Positions 4,221 through 23,602 of a DNA stretch of 48,506 nucleotides are shown in pieces. The stretch lies in assembly GCA_964368275.1 (NCBI GenBank), contig CAYJAQ010000004.1, positions 1 to 48,506 of the forward strand. Direction: 5' to 3'. The first letter of the stretch is position 1. Each line of letters starts with the position of its first letter. A model generated the notes under the pieces. It made no database searches and was not told the origin of the DNA. It worked only from the letters and a program-made list of their open reading frames with translations. This DNA comes from an uncultured Staphylococcaceae bacterium (GTDB lineage Bacteria; Bacillota_I; Bacilli_A; ML615J-28; CAG-313). Position numbers and translations under genes: made by a program.

Positions 4221-4618
4221 GTGATTTTTATTAAAAACATTAGACCCCACCATTTACTGTGTATGCAATTTTTTATTGGCAAAGGATATGATGAGAAGTT
4301 TGTTAACAATATGAATGAGGTTATCAATGAATTAAAAAAGAAGATGATGTTAGAATTGTCTTTTCAAATGATGATATTTGTAATTGTTGCCCGAAGTTTG
4401 TTAATGGTGAATGTCAAGATATTGAAAAAGTTAGTAAATATGATAGTCACTTGATGAGTAGATTACACTTAGCAGAAGGCATATTCTCGTATGCAATGCT
4501 TAAGAATCTAGTGTTTGCTGAAATTATTAGACCCAATAAAAGATGTGAAATATGTGCCGACTGTGAATGGAATAGTATTTGTCAAACTAGCACTAAAGCC
4601 TATGGAGATAGTTTATGA
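4221..4618 (+). pseudogene. DUF1284-family gene interrupted by a frameshift at an A6 run (4334-4339)
   Basis: Frame 1 gives MIFIKNIRPHHLLCMQFFIGKGYDEKFVNNMNEVINELKK. After the A-run the family-like sequence continues in another frame (EDDVRIVFSNDDICNCCPKFVNGECQDIEKVSKYDSH ... CEICADCEWNSICQ) to the TGA at 4616-4618. One extra A would restore a single ORF. Confidence 0.6.
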
Positions 4619-4887
4619 GTATTGAAAGTTTCATTAATGAAAAAGGACAGATTAAAACTTGGCCAAGTAAGTTTGCCAAAAAGCGTGAAATTGTTGAGTA
4701 TTTAGCTGATAAATTTGCTTTTGACATCATTTACACAGAAAAAGAATTAAATGCGGTAATAGAGAAGTGGCACACTTTCAATGATCCAATTCTATTGCGA
4801 AGAAGTTTAATTGACTATGGATTTTTTGACCGTGAAAAGGATGGCAGTAAGTATTGGCGAATCCCTCAGGAAGAAGTACAATTATAG
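4615..4887 (+). CDS. DUF2087-like small protein
   Basis: The ORF encodes 90 aa and shows an ATGA overlap with the upstream gene. It contains WPSKFAKKREIVEYLADKF ... YTEKELNAVI ... DPILLRRSLIDYGFFDREKDGSKYW. Confidence 0.55.
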   Translation: MSIESFINEKGQIKTWPSKFAKKREIVEYLADKFAFDIIYTEKELNAVIEKWHTFNDPILLRRSLIDYGFFDREKDGSKYWRIPQEEVQL

Positions 4888-4891
4888 ATTT

Positions 4892-4921
4892 GAAAAAAAG
4901 AACCAAATGGTTCTTTTTTTA
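4892..4921. terminator. Bidirectional rho-independent terminator between convergent genes
   Basis: AAAAAAAGAACCAAATGGTTCTTTTTTT: a stem flanked by an A-run and a T-run. Confidence 0.7.
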
Positions 4922-5698
4922 TCCTAAAGCAACGTCAAGCGCCATCATTACAATAAACCCAAAGATAATCCCTAAACTAGCAATAATTTTATTGTCTTTA
5001 AATGAATCGGGAATCAATTCGGAACATACTACCGCTATCATTGCTCCAGCTGAGAATGATAATAGAAACGGTAGTACATTTTGAACTGTCAGAACAAATA
5101 ATGCACCTATTACTCCTGCGATTGGTTCGACAATCCCCGACGCCTGGCCTAAGAAGAAGGATTTTCCGCGACTGTAGCCATTTGCCCTAAGGGGCATTGC
5201 AACACAAGCTCCTTCAGGAAAATTTTGCAAACCGATTCCAAGCGCCAGCAATAATGCGCCAACAATTGTTACACCTGGCATATTTAAAGGAATAGTAGCA
5301 AAAGCAACACCAACTGCCATACCTTCTGGTATATTGTGAAGAGTTACGGCCGATGTTAGTAAAAAAGTACGTTTTCTTTTTACGTCAATTTTAGACCAAC
5401 GACTGAGCATAATGTCGCTACCAATTACGAATAAACCACCTAGTAAAAATCCAATAACAGGGTCGATGAAGGGCTTTTTTCCCATTCTCTCACATAACTC
5501 AATGGCTGGAGCTAGAAGTGACCAAAATGATGCTGCAATCATTACTCCTCCCGCAAATCCCATCATGAAATCAAGTATTTTTTGGTTAATTGTTTTAAAG
5601 AAAAAGACTAAACTAGCGCCTGCTCCGGTTACAAAGTAAGTAAATAAAGTTGCTAATAATGCCTGAAATACCGGATTTAAGCTTATAAACCATGTCAT
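4919..5698 (-). CDS. ZIP-family divalent metal transporter (ZupT-like)
   Basis: The 259-aa polytopic membrane protein carries the HNIPEGMAVG and QNFPEG motifs typical of ZIP/ZupT. Confidence 0.8.
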   Translation of the reverse strand: MTWFISLNPVFQALLATLFTYFVTGAGASLVFFFKTINQKILDFMMGFAGGVMIAASFWSLLAPAIELCERMGKKPFIDPVIGFLLGGLFVIGSDIMLSRWSKIDVKRKRTFLLTSAVTLHNIPEGMAVGVAFATIPLNMPGVTIVGALLLALGIGLQNFPEGACVAMPLRANGYSRGKSFFLGQASGIVEPIAGVIGALFVLTVQNVLPFLLSFSAGAMIAVVCSELIPDSFKDNKIIASLGIIFGFIVMMALDVALG

Positions 5699-6504: not shown

Positions 6505-7179
6505 ATGAAATTATTATTGGTAGAAGATGAAAGAGAGATTGCCAGTGCGGTTGCTAAAGTACTACGTCATAATAATTATTTAGTAGACGTGGTGTATGAT
6601 GGCGAAGAAGCTCTTGATTATTTAGCGTGTGCTGAATATGATGCTGTCATTTTAGATGTAATGATGCCCAAACTAGACGGAGTATCAGTCGCAAAAGAAC
6701 TCCGAAAAAATGGTAACAATGTACCAATTTTAATGCTGACAGCGAAGGCGGAGATTGATGATCGGGTGTTAGGGCTTGATGTGGGTGCAGATGATTACTT
6801 AACTAAGCCCTTTGCAATGAAAGAACTATTAGCACGGATTCGCTCAGTAACTAGACGTAAAGATACTAGCATTAAAGAATATGTTTTTGCTGATATTTCT
6901 CTTAATCCCCAAAATTATGAGTTATCGACAAGTTATAAGAAGTGCCGCTTATCAAGTAAAGAGTTTCAGATGTTAGAATTATTAATGAATAATGCGAATG
7001 TGTTAATATCCACTGAGCGATTTATGGAGAAAGTTTGGGGTTTTGACACGGAGGCAGAGATAAATGTAGTATGGGTGTACATTTCAGCAATTAGAAAAAA
7101 GCTTGATTTCATTAGTGCAAATGTAACAATAAAAGCAGTTAGAGGTTTGGGATATCAATTGGAGAATAAACATGATTAG
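6505..7179 (+). CDS. OmpR-family response regulator
   Basis: A receiver domain (LLVEDE ... DAVILDVMMPKLDG ... LTAK) is followed by a winged-helix output domain (SSKEFQMLELLM ... VRGLGYQL). Confidence 0.9.
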   Translation: MKLLLVEDEREIASAVAKVLRHNNYLVDVVYDGEEALDYLACAEYDAVILDVMMPKLDGVSVAKELRKNGNNVPILMLTAKAEIDDRVLGLDVGADDYLTKPFAMKELLARIRSVTRRKDTSIKEYVFADISLNPQNYELSTSYKKCRLSSKEFQMLELLMNNANVLISTERFMEKVWGFDTEAEINVVWVYISAIRKKLDFISANVTIKAVRGLGYQLENKHD

Positions 7180-8386
7180 AAAATTACAAAAACGTTTTAT
7201 TGTAGTAGCTATGACAGCAGTTACCATTGTCCTTGCCATTATTATGGTAGCTATTAATTTAATTAATTATATAACAGTAACAAATTTTGCTGATGACGTG
7301 CTTGATAATCTTGTTAGAGGTAATGGTCAATTCTTACCTCAACCTGCTCCCCCTAAAGATATGCGGCCACCAAGTGATAAAATGACGGGTGAAACGCGTT
7401 TCGAAACTCGTTATTTCTCAGTAATTTTAGATAATAACCATGAAGCAGTAAAAATTGATACAACGCATATCTTCGCTGTAGATCAGACAAACGCTGTTTT
7501 GTATAGTCAAGAAGTATTAACAACTAAAAGAACATCGGGTTATTTGGATATTTATCGTTATCGTAAAGAACTGACGGAATCAGGTACATTAATAATCTTT
7601 ATTGATTGTTCAAAGCAATTGATGACAGTAAAAGATTTTTTAATAGGAAGTATAATTGTATCGGGTCTAGGAATGGTAGCTGTTACATTAGTTGTAATAC
7701 TATTATCAAAAAGGGCTATTTTGCCAATTGCTAAGAGTTATGAAAAGCAAAAAAGCTTTGTGACTGATGCTAGCCATGAACTAAAAACCCCACTTACGAT
7801 TATTTCGGCTAATAATGAAATACTGGAATTAGAAGTTGGTACAAATGAATATACACGCATGATTGCTAAACAGGTAGAACGAATGGCAACCATGACCAAA
7901 AACTTATTATTATTATCAAAAATTAGTGAAGACGATTTTAAAAATGAATGTGAAAAGTTTGTATTAACAGATGCTATTATCGATGTTACTGATTCATTTA
8001 GAACAGTGATTAGCGATAAACGGGTGTTTGAGGTTACTATTGATAATAATATTAATTATTATGGCAACGAAAAGCTAATTAGACAAATGATTTTTATTTT
8101 GCTCGATAATGCATATAAGTATTCCCAAAAAGCAATTTATGTTAAAATAAGTAGTGAAAAAGGACGAATAATGATTGAGTGTCGAAATGATTGCGAAGGC
8201 GTAGAAATAGGTAACCTAAATAAATATTGTGATCGTTTCTACCGTTCAGCTATTTCTCGTGCATCGAGTATTGAAGGAAGTGGCATCGGCTTATCCATTG
8301 CTAAAGAGATAATCGATATGCATAAGGGAAAACTTACTTTATCAAGTAAAACTGGTCATGATTTCATTGCTGAAATTGAATTATAA
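7172..8386 (+). CDS. Sensor histidine kinase
   Basis: It overlaps the response regulator gene by 8 nt and has two TM helices. It shows an H-box (SHELKTPLT), an N-box (DNAYKYS) and a G-box (GSGIGLSIAKEI). Confidence 0.9.
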   Translation: MIRKLQKRFIVVAMTAVTIVLAIIMVAINLINYITVTNFADDVLDNLVRGNGQFLPQPAPPKDMRPPSDKMTGETRFETRYFSVILDNNHEAVKIDTTHIFAVDQTNAVLYSQEVLTTKRTSGYLDIYRYRKELTESGTLIIFIDCSKQLMTVKDFLIGSIIVSGLGMVAVTLVVILLSKRAILPIAKSYEKQKSFVTDASHELKTPLTIISANNEILELEVGTNEYTRMIAKQVERMATMTKNLLLLSKISEDDFKNECEKFVLTDAIIDVTDSFRTVISDKRVFEVTIDNNINYYGNEKLIRQMIFILLDNAYKYSQKAIYVKISSEKGRIMIECRNDCEGVEIGNLNKYCDRFYRSAISRASSIEGSGIGLSIAKEIIDMHKGKLTLSSKTGHDFIAEIEL

Positions 8387-8432: not shown

Positions 8433-8500
8433 ACTGATACTTTTAAGTTAATTTAAGTTTAATGTTTTATAATGTTATTGTAGAAAAAGAGGTGCTGACT

Positions 8501-9190
8501 TTGGATAAGGGTAGTGTGTTTAGACGATATGAGTTAAAGTTCATCATTAATAATCAGCAGTACAATGCTATTATAGATACAATTAATCAAAACATGGAGT
8601 TAGATGAGCACGGGAAAAGCTTGGTATGTAATTTATATTTTGATACTTCCAATAGTTTATTAATCCGTCGCTCGATTGAAAAGCCAGTTTACAAAGAGAA
8701 AATTCGTCTTCGTAGTTATGGTATACCTAAATCAAATGATTTAGTTTTTATTGAATTAAAGAATAAGTATGACGGAATTGTTTATAAAAGAAGAATGGCG
8801 TTGCCAGAAAAACAAGCAATGACGGGAATAATTAGTGGCCAAATTGACGATAGTAGTCAAATTGCAAAAGAGATAAATTATTTCTTGAAGCGATATGGTA
8901 AAATTGAGCCATCTGTAGTCTTGAGTTATCAGCGAAGTGCTTATTATGGGATTGGTAATCATGATTTGCGCTTGACTTTTGATACTAATTTGTTATATCG
9001 TGATTATGACTTAAACTTAACTAAAGGAATATATGGTACACCATTATTGGGCGATGATGAAATACTAATGGAAGTAAAAAGTAGCACTGCTTTTCCCCTT
9101 TGGCTAGTACATGAATTAAGTAGTAATAAAATATATAAAAGACCGTTTTCCAAATATGGAATGGCTTATCAATTAAAGAAAGAGGCATAA
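8501..9190 (+). CDS. VTC-domain (Vtc4-like triphosphate-tunnel) putative polyphosphate polymerase domain protein
   Basis: Alternating charged beta-strand motifs are present: YELKF, KEKIRLRSY, FIELKNK, YKRR and ILMEVK. The start is set at an in-frame TTG at 8501, 6 nt after AGAGGTG. The track start at 8462 overlaps a TATAAT box (8467-8472). Confidence 0.7.
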   Translation: MDKGSVFRRYELKFIINNQQYNAIIDTINQNMELDEHGKSLVCNLYFDTSNSLLIRRSIEKPVYKEKIRLRSYGIPKSNDLVFIELKNKYDGIVYKRRMALPEKQAMTGIISGQIDDSSQIAKEINYFLKRYGKIEPSVVLSYQRSAYYGIGNHDLRLTFDTNLLYRDYDLNLTKGIYGTPLLGDDEILMEVKSSTAFPLWLVHELSSNKIYKRPFSKYGMAYQLKKEA

Positions 9191-9192
9191 AC

Positions 9193-9873
9193 ATGGAAAA
9201 GATATTTGATTCTATTATAGCAACTAAAATAACTTTCTGGGGATTCATTGTAATAATGGCAGTGGCATTTTTGTTAGGAATTTGCTTAGCCGTTACGACC
9301 GCATATAAAAGTCGTTATTCTAAAAGCTTTGCAATTACCTTAGCATTGATTCCTGCTGTAGTTTCGTTAGTAATTATAATGGTTAATGGTAATTTAGGTG
9401 CAGGAATTGCTGTTGCGGGTGCGTTTAGTTTAGTAAGATTTCGCTCTTCTCCTGGCACCGCTAAAGAAATATGTGCAATTTTTGTTGCGAGTACAGCTGG
9501 TTTAGCATTAGGAATGGGATATGTCACTTATGCTGTTATCTTTGTAGTTCTAATCGCTTTTGTTTTTTGGGTGCTTTCAGTTACTAATTTTGGCAACACT
9601 TCGGTACATACAAAAGATAAGGTTCTAAAAATAACTATTCCTGAAGATTTAAACTATAGTGATGTATTTATTGATGTATTCAAGAAATATACTACCAAAC
9701 AGCAGCTTGTAAAAGTAAAAACAACTAATATGGGAAGCATGTTCAAACTAACCTACCAGATTACTCTTGTTGGAGGTATAAGCGAGAAGGAATTCATTGA
9801 CGAATTGCGCTGCTTGAATGGTAATTTAGAAGTAATGTTAAGCATAGAAGAACATTCTCAAAGTGAACTGTAA
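9193..9873 (+). CDS. DUF4956-family membrane protein
   Basis: It starts 2 nt after the VTC gene. It has about 4 TM helices, an AFSLVRFRS motif, and a roughly 90-aa soluble C-terminal domain. Confidence 0.7.
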   Translation: MEKIFDSIIATKITFWGFIVIMAVAFLLGICLAVTTAYKSRYSKSFAITLALIPAVVSLVIIMVNGNLGAGIAVAGAFSLVRFRSSPGTAKEICAIFVASTAGLALGMGYVTYAVIFVVLIAFVFWVLSVTNFGNTSVHTKDKVLKITIPEDLNYSDVFIDVFKKYTTKQQLVKVKTTNMGSMFKLTYQITLVGGISEKEFIDELRCLNGNLEVMLSIEEHSQSEL

Positions 9874-9887
9874 AAGGAGTTGATCGT

Positions 9888-11627
9888 GTGAAACTTAAAC
9901 ATAAATTTGTGATGATGCTTGTGGTATTAATAATGGTGTTGTTAGTGTCATGTGATGCCCCCAATCCAGTAGTTCCAGGCGAAGTAGAACTACCTGATAC
10001 TGATATTGCTGTTCCTAATTCTGACGATATGTTTAGTAATAAGGATAATAAGGTGTCATATGCGGAAGATGAAAAAGTTGCTATTTCACTGAATGGTACT
10101 TCAATCAGCTGTGATAGCAGCAATGTAGTAATTAATGGCCAAAATGCGACAATAACCAAAAAAGGTATCTATGAAGTAACGGGTACACTTTATGATGGCC
10201 AAATTGTTGTCAATATTGATAATGCTGATAAAGTAACCGTTATTTTAAATAATGCAAGCATAACAGCTACATCGACTGCTCCTGTATATGTCTTATCAGC
10301 CGATAAAGTGTTCCTAAATATTGTTGGGAATAATGAATTAATAACTACAAACAATTATATTGCAATAGACGATAACAATATTGATGGTACTATTTTTGCT
10401 AAAGACGATTTGACAATTAATGGAACAGGCACTCTTAGCGTGACTAGTTCGTATGGTAATGGAATTGTCGCTAAAGATGATTTGATTATTGTTGGTACTA
10501 CCCTTAATGTTAATGCTGCTGAAGATGGTTTTGATGTTAATGATAGTGTTAGAATGAATAATTGTAATGTTAATATTAAAGCTGAGCATGATGGTATTCA
10601 CTGCGAAAATGATGAAGATACTACGTTAGGCTATATTTACATTGATGGCGGAACTTACAATATTACAGGAATGCTTGATGGTATTCAGGCAAGTTCAACT
10701 ATTCAGATTATAAAAGGCAATTTTACCATAAAAACTGGTGGTGGTAGTGCTAATTCTAGCAGCAATAGTGGTGGATACTGGGGTAGTGTTACAACTGAGT
10801 CAATGAAGGGAATAAAAGCTACTAGTAATATTGTCATAACAAGTGGAGAATTAACGCTTGATACATCAGATGATGCCATTCACTCTAACGGCTCTATTCA
10901 ACTAGATGGTGGTTCTTATGATGTCACAAGTGGTGATGATGGTATTCACGCCGATAGTACTATTATTATTAACGGTGGTATAATCACTATTTCCCAAAGT
11001 TATGAAGGAATAGAAGCCCAGAATATTACGATAAATGGTGGCACAATTAAAATAAGTGCTACTGATGATGGTTTAAATGCGGCTGGTGGTAAGGATGGCT
11101 CAGGGCTTGGCCGACCGGGTTTTGGCTCATTTAATCCTAACAGTAATTGTTTTATTACAATTACGGGGGGAAATCTTTCAGTAAATGCAAGTGGTGATGG
11201 AATTGACGCAAATGGTGCTCTTTACGTTTCTGGCGGTACTACGATTGTTGAAGGGCCAACATCAAGTGGAAATGGTGCCCTTGACTACGATGGAGTTGCT
11301 CAAATTACCGGCGGTGTTTTTGTAGCAATTGGTAGCAGTGGAATGGCCCAAAACTTTGGTAATACCTCATCACAAGCATCAATTCTATATAATATGAATA
11401 GTGCTCAAAATGCTAATACCGAAATAACGATTATGGATAGCAATAATGATATTTTGTTCACACATACTGCTAAAAAACGTTATCAGTCGGTCTTAATTAG
11501 TGGACCTTTTATTACAATTGGTAAAACATATAAGCTAGCTTTAGGTACTACTACGACAAATATTACGATGTCCAGCCTAATTTATTCGATTGGTGGAGGA
11601 ATGGGTGGTGGCGGTCGACCACGCTAA
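9888..11627 (+). CDS. Lipoprotein with parallel beta-helix repeats (Cthe_2159-like carbohydrate-binding family)
   Basis: It has a GTG start after AAGGAG, and a signal peptide with lipobox LLVSC. It shows repeated DDGIHA, DDAIHS, GDGIDANG and DDGLNA turns and SGG-rich loops. The C-terminal tail is GGGMGGGGRPR. Confidence 0.7.
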   Translation: MKLKHKFVMMLVVLIMVLLVSCDAPNPVVPGEVELPDTDIAVPNSDDMFSNKDNKVSYAEDEKVAISLNGTSISCDSSNVVINGQNATITKKGIYEVTGTLYDGQIVVNIDNADKVTVILNNASITATSTAPVYVLSADKVFLNIVGNNELITTNNYIAIDDNNIDGTIFAKDDLTINGTGTLSVTSSYGNGIVAKDDLIIVGTTLNVNAAEDGFDVNDSVRMNNCNVNIKAEHDGIHCENDEDTTLGYIYIDGGTYNITGMLDGIQASSTIQIIKGNFTIKTGGGSANSSSNSGGYWGSVTTESMKGIKATSNIVITSGELTLDTSDDAIHSNGSIQLDGGSYDVTSGDDGIHADSTIIINGGIITISQSYEGIEAQNITINGGTIKISATDDGLNAAGGKDGSGLGRPGFGSFNPNSNCFITITGGNLSVNASGDGIDANGALYVSGGTTIVEGPTSSGNGALDYDGVAQITGGVFVAIGSSGMAQNFGNTSSQASILYNMNSAQNANTEITIMDSNNDILFTHTAKKRYQSVLISGPFITIGKTYKLALGTTTTNITMSSLIYSIGGGMGGGGRPR

Positions 11628-17995: not shown

Positions 17996-18076
17996 ATTTA
18001 ACAAGCAAGAAAAATTGTTATTAAAAAGCATTTATTAAAAAATAATGATATAATATGCCAAAAGGAGACATTGATA

Positions 18077-20401
18077 ATGGAAAAAATGATTAAGAATAGC
18101 CGTTTTGCTCATAAAGAGATATTGGCTGATATAAATGATGATGCAAATACAAGATGGTTAAATAAGCCAGTCCTATCTACCAAGGACATTTATAATGGAG
18201 ATACTTTAGAAGGTGTAATTGGTCCAAAAGATGGTTCCATGACTCTTTCTAATAAATTCGCAAATTTTGGTAATAGTAGTTTATTAATTACCGCGAACAC
18301 TCAAGTTGAGAATGTTTTTCCACGTCCTGCCTGCGGAGTTACTTTTCAATTGCCTCATGTAGACTATTCGGAATATAACCGATTAAGTGCTTGGGTTTAT
18401 ATTGAATCTGTTGGCCATCAAAATTTCTATTTTCATTTTTCGTTTGGCAATAATGGTGCTGAAGAAAATCATGCTCCTAGTTTAGTACCAAATGAATGGA
18501 ATCATGTGGTCTGGGAAGTGTCCCATATTAAACGCAATGATGTTACTAAGTTAAGTGTTACCCCTTTCTTAATGGGATGTCCACCAGAAGGATTACCAGA
18601 ATTAAAAGTTTATATTCATAATATTCGCGCAGAACTGGTTAAACAAGATCATGATAAAGGTTGGCAATTAGATGATCGTATTGCGTATTGCCATACAGGT
18701 TACTTTAATAATGCTAAAAAAGTGGCATTAGTTGCGAGTACTCCCAATAAATCTTTTCAAGTATACAATTATAAAGAAGAATTGGTGTATGAAGGGCTTG
18801 TTAAAGGATGTAATTCTAGTCTAGGCTCCTTTTATGAACTTGATTTTTCTAGTTTGACAACTACTGGTGAGTATTATTTAAAGATTGATGAACGCAAGAC
18901 ACCGATGTTTGCAATTAATGATATGCCATACTTATCATCTATTTGGAAAAGTATGAATTTTTTACGAATGTTGCGCTGCGGCGAAGAAGTAGTTAATGTC
19001 CATAGTGCGTGTCATTTAAATTGCCGAACAGTTCATCCAAATGGTAGCAGTGTTCCCAATCATGGTGGTTGGCACGATGCTGGTGATGTTTCGCAGTTTG
19101 AAATTTGTACTGCTGAAATGGCTCAAGCAATTTTAGAACTAGCAGAGAAATATCAATATACTGATACCGATTTATATGAACGCTTGCTTGAAGAGGCTAA
19201 AGTTGGTATCAACTGGCTTTTACAAACACGCTTTGGTGATGGTTCACGAGCTTGTGCTGTAAGTTATTCGATTTGGCGCAGTAATGTTTTAAAACCAGAT
19301 AATAAGAGTGTCTTAATTAGTCAAGCGGAAAATGGTCCTTTTGAAAACTTATGTTCTGCTGCGGCACTTAGTGTTGCTGCCCAGATGTATAAAGAAAGTG
19401 ATGCGGTATTTGCTAAATGGTGTGCTAGAAGTGCTGTGGAAGATTATCAATTTGGAGTTGATGGTTATAAAAAAGGGATATATACAAAACGTTGGGGCAC
19501 CAATGTTGATGCTCAAGTAGTTGGTTGTGCTTGCATGACAGCTTGTGAATTATATTTACTTACTTGTGACAATAAATACATTAATGAAGCTTGCAATTTT
19601 GCAAATATCATCTTAGCTTGTCAACAGTCTGAATATCCAAGTTGGGATATTCCAGTACGAGGTTATTTTTATGAGGACCCTGCACATACTAGTATCTTAA
19701 CTTATGAACATCGTGGCCATGAACAGACACCGATTCAAGGCTTAGCACGTTTACTAGAAATTATGCCTAATCATAATGATGCAGAAAAATGGCGCCATGG
19801 TTTAGAATTATATGCTGAATACGTGATATGGTCAATTGATAAAGCACGACCATACAACCTTTTACCAGCACATATTTACGAAGTTGATAAACTAAATGCT
19901 GAAAGATTTACAATACCAGCGACTCATGGAACAATAGAAGAAGGCATGGCAAATTTAAAACAACAAGCGATGCATGGAATCAAGTTAAATGAAGGAGTTT
20001 ATTTGCGATTATTCCCGATAGCTGTTCAAAGAAGAGGTTATCATGCAACATTATTAAGTAAAGTTAAAGCTGTAACAATGATTGCCAAGGTTTTAGATAA
20101 AACAGAATTAGGGCAAATAGCGATTGATCAGTTAGAATGGATTTTCGGTAAAAATCCATTTGCTTCTTCAACTATGTATGGTGAGGGACACAACTTCCAT
20201 CCACTTTATGTTGCCTTTTCACGCCAAATGGTTGGTGCATTACCTGTTGGTATTAAGACATTGGGCGATGATGATGAACCATTCTGGCCCACAATTAATA
20301 ATGCTGTGTTCAAAGAAATTTGGGGTCATACAACGGGTAAATATCTTTGGGTCTTAGCAGACTTAGTTGAAATAGTTAATAAAAAATCACAGAAGATGTG
20401 A
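18077..20401 (+). CDS. Glycoside hydrolase family 9 protein, no signal peptide
   Basis: It shows the GH9 signature HGGWHDAGD. An Ig-like N-terminal module is typical of GH9 (AYCHTGYF ... YELDFSSLTTTGEYYLKI ... MFAIND), preceded by a roughly 200-aa extra N-terminal region. The start is the ATG at 18077, 9 nt after AGGAG. Confidence 0.8.
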   Translation: MEKMIKNSRFAHKEILADINDDANTRWLNKPVLSTKDIYNGDTLEGVIGPKDGSMTLSNKFANFGNSSLLITANTQVENVFPRPACGVTFQLPHVDYSEYNRLSAWVYIESVGHQNFYFHFSFGNNGAEENHAPSLVPNEWNHVVWEVSHIKRNDVTKLSVTPFLMGCPPEGLPELKVYIHNIRAELVKQDHDKGWQLDDRIAYCHTGYFNNAKKVALVASTPNKSFQVYNYKEELVYEGLVKGCNSSLGSFYELDFSSLTTTGEYYLKIDERKTPMFAINDMPYLSSIWKSMNFLRMLRCGEEVVNVHSACHLNCRTVHPNGSSVPNHGGWHDAGDVSQFEICTAEMAQAILELAEKYQYTDTDLYERLLEEAKVGINWLLQTRFGDGSRACAVSYSIWRSNVLKPDNKSVLISQAENGPFENLCSAAALSVAAQMYKESDAVFAKWCARSAVEDYQFGVDGYKKGIYTKRWGTNVDAQVVGCACMTACELYLLTCDNKYINEACNFANIILACQQSEYPSWDIPVRGYFYEDPAHTSILTYEHRGHEQTPIQGLARLLEIMPNHNDAEKWRHGLELYAEYVIWSIDKARPYNLLPAHIYEVDKLNAERFTIPATHGTIEEGMANLKQQAMHGIKLNEGVYLRLFPIAVQRRGYHATLLSKVKAVTMIAKVLDKTELGQIAIDQLEWIFGKNPFASSTMYGEGHNFHPLYVAFSRQMVGALPVGIKTLGDDDEPFWPTINNAVFKEIWGHTTGKYLWVLADLVEIVNKKSQKM

Positions 20402-20466
20402 TTTTTTACTTTTTTTCTTTCAAATTTGCAAAAATATGCTATAATATGCTATCCAAGGAGTTTATT

Positions 20467-20997
20467 ATGATTAGATTAGCAATAATGATTGATTTAAAAG
20501 GGATTATGAAGTGTATAAATGACGCTAAGGAATTATTTAGATCTGTTAAGTCTGATCAGTGGCAAGCACCTACTGGCTATCCTGATGAGAATAATATTAG
20601 TGATGATATTGTCAATCAAAGAATGTATGTTTTTGAAGATGATAACATAATTAAAGGGTGTATGGCTGTTTTAAGAACTCCTGAACCAACCTATTTAAAT
20701 ATCTATGAAGGGGCTTGGTTAAACAGTGACGAATATTGGACAGTTCATCGGATTGCTGTTAACAAAAAATATTATCACCAAGAGGTTGCTACAGAGATGA
20801 TGAAATTTGTAGAAGTTGAAGCAGCAAGAAATCAAGTTTTTAATATTAAAATTGATACTAAAATTGAGAATAAGAATATGCGAGGGTTAGCAGATAAGCT
20901 AGGATACGTTTATTGTGGCATAATTTATCTTTGCAAGAATGACTTAGATCCTAAACGCCTTGCTTATCAAAAAGTAATTGAAAAAGAAGGAAAATAA
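20467..20997 (+). CDS. GNAT-family N-acetyltransferase
   Basis: The start is the ATG at 20467, after AAGGAG. A TATAAT lies upstream inside the track ORF extension. It has a WTVHRIAVNKKYYHQEVATEMM acetyl-CoA-binding-like segment. Confidence 0.6.
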   Translation: MIRLAIMIDLKGIMKCINDAKELFRSVKSDQWQAPTGYPDENNISDDIVNQRMYVFEDDNIIKGCMAVLRTPEPTYLNIYEGAWLNSDEYWTVHRIAVNKKYYHQEVATEMMKFVEVEAARNQVFNIKIDTKIENKNMRGLADKLGYVYCGIIYLCKNDLDPKRLAYQKVIEKEGK

Positions 20998-20998
20998 A

Positions 20999-21706
20999 AT
21001 GAAATCTTTTAAAGTCATGAAAATAGTTTTTGGTATATTGGGAATCGCTTTTTTAGTTGCTGCGATTGTTGTTACGTTCACCTATAGCAAAATAAAGCAA
21101 ACTTATCAAAAAGTAGATGCTGTTGTTATCTATAGTAATACTGATACTGATTATGATTATACTGTTGTTGAATATAAGTATCGGGGCATATCATATGAAG
21201 GTAGAATAAATTATAGTTCGTTTAATATCAGAGAAGGCGATACAATTACGGTTATGGTTGACCCCGAGGATGCCCGTCAAGTAAAGTACCGGGGAACATA
21301 TGTAATGCTAATCATTATGTTTAGTGCTATGGGTACTTCATTTTGTTTAGTTCCGATTATTATGAATATCGTTTTAAAGAAACGTAACAAACTAAAAAAT
21401 TTTGCTCTGCGTAATGGTAGACGGATAAAAGCTATGGCTGACCAAGTTTGTGAAAATAGATTTGTTTCATATAATAATCGCCACCCATATTATCTAACAT
21501 GCCACTATAAGGATCGTTTTGGGCGCCATGATTTAAAAAGTAACAACTTCTGGGATCCCATCGACCTTCCTGAAAAAGCTGTTTTGTATGTCTATGTAAT
21601 TGATGAAAATAAGTATTATGTTGATTTGACAACAATTAGGGCATATGATGATGATGTTGATTTTGATATTTTTCAAATAGATGATTATCAAGTTGTTGAT
21701 AAGTAA
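20999..21706 (+). CDS. Membrane protein, DUF3592-like
   Basis: Two TM helices bracket a beta-rich domain (VDAVVIYSN ... VVEYKYRGISYEG ... GDTITVMVDPED), followed by a soluble C-terminal domain. Confidence 0.55.
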   Translation: MKSFKVMKIVFGILGIAFLVAAIVVTFTYSKIKQTYQKVDAVVIYSNTDTDYDYTVVEYKYRGISYEGRINYSSFNIREGDTITVMVDPEDARQVKYRGTYVMLIIMFSAMGTSFCLVPIIMNIVLKKRNKLKNFALRNGRRIKAMADQVCENRFVSYNNRHPYYLTCHYKDRFGRHDLKSNNFWDPIDLPEKAVLYVYVIDENKYYVDLTTIRAYDDDVDFDIFQIDDYQVVDK

Positions 21707-21767
21707 TTATTTCATTTGCATTTTAGATTAGATAGTAGTATGATATTACTCGAAAAAGGAAAGATAT

Positions 21768-22652
21768 ATGAAAAGTAATTGTTTTCGTGACCTAATAACA
21801 ACTAAATATAATGAAGCAAATGTTGTTCTAACGGGTATTCCCTATGACAAAGGGTGCTCATGTGAAAAAGGGGCTGCCGATGCACCACGGGTAATGCGTG
21901 AACTATCAAGCTTTTTACCAGCGTGTTCGATGAATGGTGATATCCTAACAAAAATAAAAATGTATGATACAGGTGATATTTTTGCTAAAGACATCCCAGA
22001 GTTAATTGAAAAATGCCACAATTTGTTTGATGATGATAAATTTCAGCTAATATTAGGTGGTGACCACTCAGCGACAATTGCAACGCAAAAAGCTTTTTTG
22101 AAGCGGACCGAAAAACACAACAAGATTCCAGCAATTATTCATATTGATGCACATCCTGATTTTTGTGCTTTCTACGATGGTAGCGCGTATTCACATGCGT
22201 GTACTAACTATCAAGCAGTTTGTAATGGCTATAAGCCAGATAATATTGTGCTGGTCGGAATAAGAGGATACGAAATACAGGAAGTAGAATACTTCTTGAA
22301 ACATCCTGAAATCACTATTTTTAATGCTAGTTCCATTAATAGAAATGGCATTGAAGAGGTAATTGCAAAAATTCTTGCCCGGTTTAATGATGATTATGAA
22401 ATCTATTTATCATATGATATTGATGCTAATGATCCTAGCTTTGCACCAGGCACTGGAACACCCGAAGCTTTTGGTTTAGCGTCTACCCAAATCCTAAAAC
22501 TGATCATGTCAGTTGTAAAAAATTTGAATATTACAGCGATGGATATCGTTGAAGTATCGCCACCACATGATAGCAATAATATGACATCATGGCTTGCGTT
22601 AAAAACTATTTATGAAGTTTTTAATGTATTAATAAATAAAAATAATTTTTAG
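21768..22652 (+). CDS. Ureohydrolase (agmatinase/arginase fold) protein
   Basis: Mn-ligand motifs are present: LGGDHSAT, IHIDAHPDF and SYDIDANDPSFAPGTGTPE. Confidence 0.8.
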   Translation: MKSNCFRDLITTKYNEANVVLTGIPYDKGCSCEKGAADAPRVMRELSSFLPACSMNGDILTKIKMYDTGDIFAKDIPELIEKCHNLFDDDKFQLILGGDHSATIATQKAFLKRTEKHNKIPAIIHIDAHPDFCAFYDGSAYSHACTNYQAVCNGYKPDNIVLVGIRGYEIQEVEYFLKHPEITIFNASSINRNGIEEVIAKILARFNDDYEIYLSYDIDANDPSFAPGTGTPEAFGLASTQILKLIMSVVKNLNITAMDIVEVSPPHDSNNMTSWLALKTIYEVFNVLINKNNF

Positions 22653-22661
22653 GAGAAAATT

Positions 22662-23468
22662 ATGAAACATATAACTTTAGATTGCTATGGCTCGGTTCAA
22701 CATTCACTGGATAGTATGATTTTAATTAATCAATTATTAACTAATTTAACATACCAAGTTGGGCTCAATCCAATTACCCCTCCACATATTATTCCTTACT
22801 ATTATGGAAAAGTAAAAGAAGATATTGGTATTAGTGGTTATGTGCTCTTAGAAGGTGGGCATGTTACTATCCACACTTTCCCAATGCGTGAATGCTATTT
22901 TGTTGATGTCTTTTCTACTTCTGATTACGATGAAAAGGCTATTTACAAGTTTTTCATGGAAAATCTACCATTTAATGAAAAATTGTCGAATTTCTTTATC
23001 CGCAATCGTGCTGTCCAAGCATTTGATGTTTTGCCATATGATCCTAACATCGATTTTGGCCCTCATGTAATGGGAGAGATAAAGACCCAATGTGATATTT
23101 CAATGGAACAAATGTTTGATTTCCTTGAGAAAATTGTTGTAGAAATCAACATGGATCCAATAATTAGAGCTGTCGTTGTTAAGAATGTTACCGAAAACCC
23201 AGATTATTTATCTGGTATTATCATTATTGCTCAAAGTCACATTTCTTTACATTATGAGTATGCTACTAAACGTATTTATGCTGATTTATTCTCTTGTGTA
23301 GCATTTGATTATACAGTTGTTGATAAATACTTTGAACAACTAGGTCAAATAGTTTCTAGCATTTTAGTGCCACGTGGTACAAAACATATTTATAAAGTAA
23401 AGTCAAGCGTTGATAATGCTGAATTGTTAGCCAATACAAAATGGCAACGTGTAATCAAATGTAAATAA
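22662..23468 (+). CDS. Tandem-duplicated AdoMetDC (SpeD/SpeH class 1)-like pyruvoyl-enzyme homologue
   Basis: Two roughly 130-aa halves each align to a class-1 AdoMetDC protomer. Half 1 reads LLEGGHVTIHTFP, with the processing Ser replaced by Gly. Half 2 reads IIAQSHISLHYEY, with Ser192 retained (nt 23235-23237). Confidence 0.7.
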   Translation: MKHITLDCYGSVQHSLDSMILINQLLTNLTYQVGLNPITPPHIIPYYYGKVKEDIGISGYVLLEGGHVTIHTFPMRECYFVDVFSTSDYDEKAIYKFFMENLPFNEKLSNFFIRNRAVQAFDVLPYDPNIDFGPHVMGEIKTQCDISMEQMFDFLEKIVVEINMDPIIRAVVVKNVTENPDYLSGIIIIAQSHISLHYEYATKRIYADLFSCVAFDYTVVDKYFEQLGQIVSSILVPRGTKHIYKVKSSVDNAELLANTKWQRVIKCK

Positions 23469-23490
23469 GATGGCGACTGCCATCTTTTCG
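23468..23490 (+). terminator. Rho-independent terminator
   Basis: AGATGGC-GACT-GCCATCT followed by TTTT. Confidence 0.7.
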
Positions 23491-23573: not shown

Positions 23574-23602
23574 TTGACAGAAACTGTAAAAGGTGCTATA
23601 AT
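23574..23602 (+). promoter_or_regulatory. Consensus sigma-A promoter of ktrBA
   Basis: TTGACA (23574-23579), a 17-nt spacer, then TATAAT (23597-23602). Confidence 0.75.

Follow-up and report, generated by a model that had tools for sequence, protein, structure and literature searches.

What does a duplicated relative of S-adenosylmethionine decarboxylase (AdoMetDC), with a processing serine in only one of its two halves, do immediately 3' of an agmatinase-like gene? This question is raised by a gene pair in a 48,506-nt stretch of DNA from an uncultured Staphylococcaceae bacterium (GenBank assembly GCA_964368275.1, contig CAYJAQ010000004.1; hereafter, the window). A first-pass annotation, made from the letters alone, had read the 268-aa product of the second gene as a fused bacterial pseudo-dimer with a single active half, most probably an arginine decarboxylase feeding the adjacent agmatinase. 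The analysis reported here points to one composite active site to which both halves would contribute, and to arginine as the most likely substrate. The full mechanism (one composite site, arginine decarboxylation and coupling to the agmatinase) appears to us, on balance, likely. The features on which the argument draws are the following.

21715..21744, + strand: promoter-like site TTTGCA-18-TATGAT in the 61-nt gap 5' of the agmatinase gene, a weak match
21768..22652, + strand: agmatinase-family ureohydrolase (SpeB-like), 294 aa (PF00491, TIGR01230, 7LOL)
22651..22655, + strand: AGGAG ribosome-binding site of the decarboxylase gene, overlapping the agmatinase stop codon
22662..23468, + strand: predicted fused SpeD-like pseudo-dimer proenzyme, 268 aa, 30.9 kDa (PF02675 twice, AlphaFold2, Foldseek)
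22662..23045, + strand: half 1, aa 1-128, with Gly66 (nt 22857-22859), Thr86, Ser58, His71 (nt 22872-22874) and HTFP
23046..23465, + strand: half 2, aa 129-268, with Gln191-Ser192 (Ser codon 23235-23237), His193 and Cys212 (23295-23297)
23467..23486, no strand assigned: GC-rich palindromic hairpin AAGATGGC-GACT-GCCATCTT with a T-rich tail, covering the last two stop-codon bases

Internal duplication and fold of the fused protein

PF02675 (AdoMet_dc; class 1b SpeD fold) matches two stretches of the 268-aa protein, and each half scanned singly clears the 25-bit gathering threshold set by Pfam (half 1, 53.4 bits and E 3.6e-14; half 2, 30.0 bits and E 7e-7), which bears out the first-pass reading of two tandem AdoMetDC-like protomers. 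The family profiles of the two halves align with each other in register (hhalign probability 90%, E 1.6e-6) at only 19% identity, a value indicative of an old duplication, with G66 opposite S192 and T86 opposite C212. Alignment to T. maritima AdoMetDC (1TLU/1TMI) places G66 of half 1 at the position of the pyruvoyl residue S63, in agreement with the Ser-to-Gly replacement described earlier, and pairs S184, S192, H197 and C212 of half 2 with S55, S63, H68 and C83, respectively. The retention of Ser192 behind Gln191 and the altered HTWPE motif of half 2 (Ala201 at the Glu position) were likewise found as annotated.

An AlphaFold2 model of the whole chain, built with 53 family sequences, reached a mean local confidence (pLDDT) of 87.4 and a predicted template-modeling score (pTM) of 0.87. 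The best Foldseek matches of the model in the PDB were T. maritima and A. aeolicus AdoMetDC monomers (TM 0.76-0.83, root-mean-square deviation 1.4-2.6 A; for T. maritima, TM 0.8 and 1.4-2.3 A), each over one half, and whole-chain matches to eukaryotic AdoMetDC were unconvincing (E 0.01-0.06, deviation >12 A; potato 1MHM, E 0.01 and 13.5 A), so that the pseudo-dimer packing is drawn from the model pTM and from homology. From homology and conservation we infer that the chain would form an intramolecular pseudo-dimer, packed like the T. maritima AdoMetDC homodimer. PF01536, the model of eukaryotic class 2 AdoMetDC, gave no match to the protein at E <= 1.

Residue conservation and the proposed composite active site

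A word-indexed search retrieved 215 clusters, the best 120 of which, all ~268 aa long and 49-68% identical to the window protein, constitute the close set for residue counts; the distant set comprises 43 full-length fused representatives at 25-46% identity. An exhaustive search of 50%-identity representatives returned 585 proteins at E <= 1e-3, among them ~50 further fused representatives reaching down to 25% identity. In the close set G66 is found in 120/120 and S192 in 119/119 clusters, which shows that the Gly/Ser pattern is not due to chance; invariant or nearly so are G66, H67, H71, F73, R76, S192, H193, H197, C212 and many other residues, with G66, H71, S192, H193 and C212 fully invariant.

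Among the 43 distant members, the position of the pyruvoyl Ser (position 0) is occupied in half 1 by Gly (39), Lys (2), Ala (1) or Ser (1) and in half 2 by Ser throughout (43/43). The catalytic Cys position (+20) carries Cys in none of the first halves (0/43) and in every second half (43/43), and His at +1 occurs in 35/43 and 43/43, respectively. At the two remaining positions it is half 1 that is constant, with His at +5 in 43/43 (30/43 in half 2) and Ser/Thr at -8 in 43/43 (Ser in 26/43 for half 2). Half 2 of the window protein thus holds the full SpeD-type set of processing Ser192, His197 (+5) and Cys212 (+20), and half 1 has G66 and T86 in place of the Ser and the Cys; the corresponding T. 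maritima residues S63, H68 and C83 are essential in that AdoMetDC (Li et al. 2023, PMC10407285). Mean identity within the family is 57% for half 1 vs. 55% for half 2 overall and 76% vs. 63% in the core. Being as conserved as half 2 and keeping the trans-type His/Ser, half 1 does not look like an inactive relic. The complementary conservation, with Ser/Cys kept in half 2 and His/Ser in half 1, supports a single composite active site, the mirror set having been left to decay. The pseudo-dimer with one site therefore stands as first proposed, whereas the notion of a single active half does not, half 1 being a probable contributor to the site.

In the bacterial AdoMetDC homodimer, each site draws residues from both chains. 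In the human enzyme, Ser68 and Cys82 belong to one half, Ser229 and His243 to the second, with T. maritima Ser63/Cys83 and Ser55/His68 presumably being their equivalents; the structural correspondence of the human and T. maritima sites was reportedly worked out by Ekstrom, Tolbert, Toms and colleagues.

Under the mechanism that we propose, the bicistronic operon would turn L-arginine into putrescine without pyridoxal 5'-phosphate (PLP). The proenzyme would cleave itself between Gln191 and Ser192, leaving residues 1-191 as a 22.0-kDa beta chain and converting Ser192 into the pyruvoyl group with which a 77-residue alpha chain (192-268, 8.9 kDa) would begin. Half 2 would supply the pyruvoyl group, His193 and the proton-donor Cys212, and half 1 would supply His71 and Ser58, which correspond to His68/Ser55 in T. 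maritima and to His243/Ser229 in the human enzyme. The second site would be dead, having Gly66 for Ser and never a Cys at 86, and the His197/Ser184 of half 2 would be dispensable, as they appear to be in distant relatives. Arginine would form a Schiff base with the pyruvoyl group, lose CO2 and be released as agmatine, which the upstream agmatinase would hydrolyze to putrescine and urea.

A single fused representative, P0121 (267 aa, 46% identical to the window protein), has Ser at the half-1 site (LLEGSHITIHTFP); its half-1 Cys is absent.

Gene linkage, domain fusions and the likely substrate

The product of ORF 21768-22652 matches PF00491 (Arginase family) with E 7e-66. It scores 171.3 bits on the agmatinase model TIGR01230, 3 bits short of the equivalog cutoff (174.3), and this score is well above those of the arginase (TIGR01229, 121 bits) and formimidoylglutamase models. 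Its closest solved structures are agmatinases, with a full-length match to E. coli SpeB (7LOL) at E 1.6e-34, as compared with E 1e-19 for PDB arginases. All binuclear Mn ligand motifs (GGDHS, DAHPD, DIDANDP), together with an EVSP segment, are kept and align to those of SpeB, with which the common fold is shared; the product is best described as a probable agmatinase. The intact motifs and the 9-nt distance to the fused gene (TAG stop at 22650-22652, ATG at 22662) agree with the first-pass description.

A scan of one genome per species detected the fused gene in at least 144 species, and 80 of these loci were inspected with flanks of up to 10 kb on each side. An agmatinase ortholog lies directly 5' on the same strand, with gaps of 0-78 nt, in 70/80 loci, and in 5 more it lies ~5.2 kb 5' on the same strand with three same-strand ORFs in between. 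It is the only conserved neighbor, all others varying among the 80 loci. The earlier remark that no spermidine synthase gene is nearby extends well beyond this contig: a search of the 48.5-kb window and of the DNA flanking 85 related loci, up to 10 kb per side and 1.32 Mb altogether, found no SpeE homolog.

A second connection to agmatine comes from triple fusions. Representatives P0179 and P0270 (69% identical) are proteins of ~602 aa in which a dead SpeD half and an active SpeD half are followed by agmatine deiminase (AguA), the latter part matching PF04371 and scoring 341 bits on TIGR03380 over the full model length. P0270 is present on three independent contigs (L087 7001-8812, L088 and L089) and P0179 at L082 1221-3029. 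In the nearest AguA relatives, P0272 and P0273 (1050 aa), the deiminase is fused instead to a PLP-dependent ornithine/arginine decarboxylase fold. Two unrelated agmatine-consuming enzymes tied to the family, with a PLP-dependent ornithine/arginine decarboxylase as the swapped partner, constitute a signature of arginine decarboxylase. Arginine decarboxylation is therefore the most likely reading of the substrate as judged from gene context, and the proposal that the fused protein probably feeds the agmatinase gains from both the linkage and the fusions. The same logic, from linkage with agmatine enzymes to arginine decarboxylase, was used by Li et al. for single-domain SpeDA proteins, which cluster with speB or aguA/aguB (PMC10407285).

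Several observations on these loci may be added. The triple fusions come from rabbit-gut metagenome-assembled genomes (MAGs) and two ENA assemblies, and at L090 (6678-8485) the triple-fusion gene appears split into ORFs of 103 and 494 aa. The loci with a distant agmatinase (L068 4823-10004, as well as L072, L077, L078 and L080; all labeled Clostridia) carry, between agmatinase and fused gene, conserved and closely spaced same-strand genes for proteins of 658, 291 and 771 aa that have no Pfam match; the N-terminal part of the 291-aa protein weakly matches an AAA ATPase of the KGGVGR type. The loci that have the fused gene and no agmatinase (L067, L069, L071, L073 and L076) share one context, namely a DnaB_2-like gene 5' on the opposite strand and phosphofructokinase and pyruvate kinase genes 3'. 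L070 and L075 have the same 5' context with agmatinase directly 5' of the fused gene; L075 also has phosphofructokinase 3', and L070 ends just past the fused gene. The occurrence of this context with and without agmatinase suggests recent loss or relocation of the partner.

Weighing of the alternatives

Several points weigh against the proposed mechanism. The trans donation of His71/Ser58 from half 1 is proposed by analogy, its basis being the structural correspondence of the human and T. maritima sites. Gln precedes Ser192 in the window subfamily, whereas Glu is usual in the wider family (39/43); other pyruvoyl enzymes accept residues besides Glu before the processing Ser. The Pro of HTFP in half 1 is kept in 119/120 close clusters. 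The residue five positions after His71 is Arg or Lys (Arg76; R32/K6 of 43), hardly an obvious partner for a cationic substrate. Finally, an agmatinase is missing within 10 kb of the fused gene at 5 related loci, and a pair of distant fused members stands alone.

The alternative that survives best, which we nevertheless consider unlikely, is a pyruvoyl decarboxylase for some other substrate (lysine, homoarginine or another guanidino or amino acid), or a functionally mixed family in which the window protein is not an arginine decarboxylase. Support comes from representatives P0206 (599 aa) and P0282 (596 aa, on 8 contigs), in which the pseudo-dimer is joined to a radical SAM domain (NF045502 variant_rSAM, 144 bits, with a weaker match to the MSMEG_0568 family); the recurrence of this fusion may point to a role, in some of the wider family, besides the feeding of agmatine enzymes. 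The stand-alone members speak in the same direction. The contigs of the distant fused members P0185, P0191 and P0193 are short or have no polyamine genes in view. Moreover, the conserved Arg that follows His71 is a possible binding residue for an anionic group, and the ureohydrolase family also includes guanidinobutyrase and guanidinopropionase. Against this alternative, linkage between the window subfamily and agmatinase-like genes is tight, the best matches of these genes being to agmatinases, and the independent link to agmatine deiminase favors agmatine as the product.

Less probable still is a true AdoMetDC, with the neighboring gene encoding an N1-aminopropylagmatine ureohydrolase as in the Thermus/Thermococcus route and with speE and arginine decarboxylase genes located elsewhere. 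SpeB homologs do act as aminopropylagmatine ureohydrolases in some organisms, the relatives of the window protein are named 'S-adenosylmethionine decarboxylase' or 'S-adenosylmethionine/arginine decarboxylase-like' in the databases, and its best Pfam and NCBIfam matches are AdoMetDC models. Yet on the AdoMetDC equivalog TIGR03330 the whole protein scores 61.8 bits, under the cutoff of 75.65, and its halves score 39.4 and 26.5 bits. The Glu of HTWPE binds the ribose of AdoMet, and its position is hydrophobic or variable in both halves (Met75 in half 1, with L54/I39/F9 in the family, and Ala201 in half 2). A fusion with agmatine deiminase would make no sense for an AdoMetDC, and speE, directly 5' of which the published SpeD fusions are located, is missing from the window and from within 10 kb at related loci. 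The Pro of the HTWPE/HTFP motif, which Li et al. (2023, PMC10407285) regard as diagnostic of true AdoMetDCs, speaks for this alternative in that half 1 keeps it; only 13 of the 43 distant fused members have it, however, and half 2 lacks it.

A reversed pathway, in which the ureohydrolase would be an arginase making ornithine and the fused protein a SpeDC-type ornithine decarboxylase, fits the gene order, with the ureohydrolase gene first in the operon, and appears very improbable to us. SpeD-derived ornithine decarboxylases are numerous, the C-terminal half of published fusions being one of them, and Gln near the processing Ser belongs to the SpeDC marks, which are given as Gln, Thr, Phe and Tyr around that Ser (Li et al. 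2023 Fig. 8, PMC10407285). The ureohydrolase is nonetheless closer to agmatinases than to arginases by both profile scores and PDB matches (171 vs. 121 bits; E 1e-34 vs. 1e-19). The SpeDC residues inferred from optical character recognition (OCR) of Fig. S5 (Gln, Thr, Leu and Phe at positions -5, -1, +1 and +6, respectively) contrast with Ile187, Gln191, His193 and Tyr198 in half 2, the published SpeDC halves score <=26 bits on the fused-family profiles, and the agmatine deiminase fusions indicate an agmatine intermediate.

That the protein is unprocessed and non-catalytic, and either binds or regulates the agmatinase or is a duplicate in decay, is scarcely credible in view of the invariance of Ser192, His193 and Cys212 in 120 close and 43 distant clusters and the strong constraint on both halves. 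In its favor one may invoke the Gln instead of Glu before Ser192 and the existence of stand-alone SpeD homologs without Ser or Cys, one of them (P0180, at L091) directly 5' of an arginase-family gene.

Distribution and origin of the fusion

The fused design is common in gut Bacilli, and the family is large and uncharacterized. The survey of its distribution suggested by the first-pass annotation yielded at least 144 species, mostly uncultured gut Bacilli and 'Mollicutes'. Most of the 80 inspected loci belong to MAGs from human, ruminant, rabbit, chicken and digester samples, and the labels of the carriers include Bacilli, Mollicutes, Anaeroplasmataceae, Acholeplasmatales, Ca. Pelethenecus, Ca. 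Caccosoma and Ca. Scatosoma, as well as a few Clostridia. Our literature searches found no paper describing the present family.

In neighbor-joining trees of the halves with 51 single-domain relatives, the first halves form one clade and the second halves another under two distance schemes. The exact half-clade split was recovered in 95/200 bootstraps each, with a mean overlap of 0.97. This half-wise grouping argues, with moderate support, for one ancient fusion. The published SpeD-SpeD fusions of Li et al. (read by OCR from Fig. S5) do not exceed 26 bits on either of the half profiles, each of their two halves being similar to the 'active' type; listed members of the window family at only 25-30% identity score >50 bits on at least one half profile and in most cases on both. 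The low scores of the published fusions suggest that the family described here arose separately. The claim of an independently evolved, eukaryote-like architecture is supported to this extent by trees and half-profile scores; bacterial SpeD-SpeD fusions had already been published, including the one-site protein of V. vadensis.

Stand-alone, single-domain SpeD homologs with neither processing Ser nor catalytic Cys, which may be called 'prozyme-like', were encountered as representatives P0180, P0226 and P0230. The gene of P0180 (L091 4001-4396, on a 1.58-Mb contig) overlaps by 1 nt the start of the arginase-family gene (4396-5217), with no active paralog in view; those of P0226 (L081 4001-4426) and P0230 (L092 4001-4441) have no SpeD or polyamine partner in view nearby. 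A pre-fusion stage, with a dead paralog beside an active one, was not found at these three loci. These proteins could pair with active paralogs encoded elsewhere.

Comparison with known systems and significance

Sulfolobus solfataricus SSO0536, described by Giles and Graham in 2008, is reportedly a SpeD homolog turned arginine decarboxylase. More broadly, bacterial and archaeal SpeD homologs became arginine or ornithine decarboxylases (Li et al. 2023, PMC10407285). With the SpeDA arginine decarboxylases, the window protein shares the class 1b SpeD fold, the Ser, His and Cys processing/catalytic residues, clustering with speB or aguA/aguB, the lack of a speE partner (in the window and flanks analyzed here) and non-conservation of the HTWPE Pro/Glu. 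It differs from them in that SpeDA proteins are single-domain (~120-160 aa) and are expected to form symmetric two-site dimers, whereas the window protein would be a fused heterologous pair with one site. The fused family also resides in Bacillota, a phylum outside the study of Li et al., the text of which mentions neither Bacillota nor Firmicutes nor Tenericutes (PMC10407285).

The published SpeD1-SpeD2 fusions (Desulfotignum phosphitoxidans, Ca. Omnitrophica OLB16 and Victivallis vadensis) likewise combine two class 1b domains in one chain of ~270-320 aa. They consist of an N-terminal AdoMetDC and a C-terminal ornithine decarboxylase and are located 5' of speE; the fusion of V. vadensis, with a degraded C-terminal half, has been put forward to illustrate how eukaryotic AdoMetDC may have arisen (PMC10407285). 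In the window family, by contrast, it is the N-terminal half that lacks Ser/Cys and the C-terminal half that has them, and the neighbor is agmatinase rather than speE. A single processing site is common to the V. vadensis and window proteins, although the dead half is degraded in the former and highly conserved in the family of the latter.

The parallel with eukaryotic class 2 AdoMetDC (human, potato) would comprise a single chain with two SpeD-like halves, one pyruvoyl site and, by analogy, the same residue split. The domain order is opposite, the pyruvoyl half being N-terminal in eukaryotes and C-terminal in the window protein; consequently, the small chain after cleavage would be alpha in the window protein and beta in eukaryotes. 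Further differences are the missing PF01536 match, the weak Foldseek similarity (E 0.01) and a likely different substrate. The trypanosomatid AdoMetDC/prozyme system offers another likeness, as a catalytically dead paralog is needed there beside the active one for a working enzyme; these are two separate class 2 chains, whereas the pair in the window is fused and prokaryotic. Taken against this background, the sequence comparisons support as new the opposite polarity (dead half N-terminal), the conserved dead half, the agmatinase partner and the separate origin; SpeD-derived decarboxylases and SpeD fusions as such were already known.

We are moderately inclined to a broader interpretation, according to which the family represents an enzyme class not recognized before, an obligate intramolecular 'prozyme' SpeD and order-reversed convergent counterpart of eukaryotic AdoMetDC, that would serve as a PLP-independent arginine decarboxylase of uncultured gut Bacilli/'Mollicutes' and some Clostridia and account, under a mistaken annotation, for a sizeable share of gut putrescine synthesis. 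Under the name 'S-adenosylmethionine decarboxylase', the gene is present in no fewer than 144 species-level genomes and in hundreds of metagenome clusters. Should it encode an arginine decarboxylase, reconstructions of metabolism wrongly credit these uncultured gut Bacilli with spermidine-pathway capacity and overlook a path leading from arginine to putrescine and urea, both of them relevant to host-microbe interactions. If correct, the proposed architecture would also represent a second independent change from a symmetric two-site pyruvoyl dimer to a fused one-site pseudo-dimer, with the same residue split in the opposite order, which bears on published scenarios deriving eukaryotic AdoMetDC from bacterial SpeD fusions. 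The natural asymmetry of the protein makes it a clean system for distinguishing cis from trans residues in pyruvoyl formation.

Organization of the locus and its surroundings

The AGGAG site overlapping the agmatinase stop codon suggests translational coupling of the two genes, and the hairpin at 23467-23486 is a probable terminator closing a two-gene operon. A perfect promoter, TTGACA-17-TATAAT, is located at 23574-23602 ahead of the next gene (TrkH/KtrB homolog, ktrB). Given the 9-nt gap with its ribosome-binding site, the hairpin and the separate ktrB promoter, the pair looks like a self-contained bicistronic operon. The number of promoter-like matches in the region around 21715..21744 is not above chance.

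The remaining window is an ordinary low-GC (~33%) chromosome of spore-forming Firmicute type, with genes for acyl-AMP ligases, acyltransferases, a GH9 glycosidase, KtrAB, AsnA, IleRS, GerA/GerAC, ThyA and DHFR. Pfam scans of window ORFs of at least 150 aa revealed no polyamine genes besides the pair. The 776-aa GH9-like protein (18071-20401) was compared with the 771-aa protein of the five Clostridia-labeled loci, and no similarity was found.

Just 5' of the operon, a GNAT acetyltransferase gene (20398-20997, 199 aa) lies on the same strand and is overlapped by a gene (20978-21706) whose 242-aa product has a hydrophobic segment at its N-terminus and matches no family. A role of the GNAT protein as a polyamine acetyltransferase is conceivable; this neighbor is not conserved at related loci. 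Farther away, VTC-domain and DUF4956 genes (8462-9873) are situated beside a two-component system (6505-8386) and are followed by a gene for a Cthe_2159 carbohydrate-binding protein (9888-11627), all seemingly unrelated to the pair.

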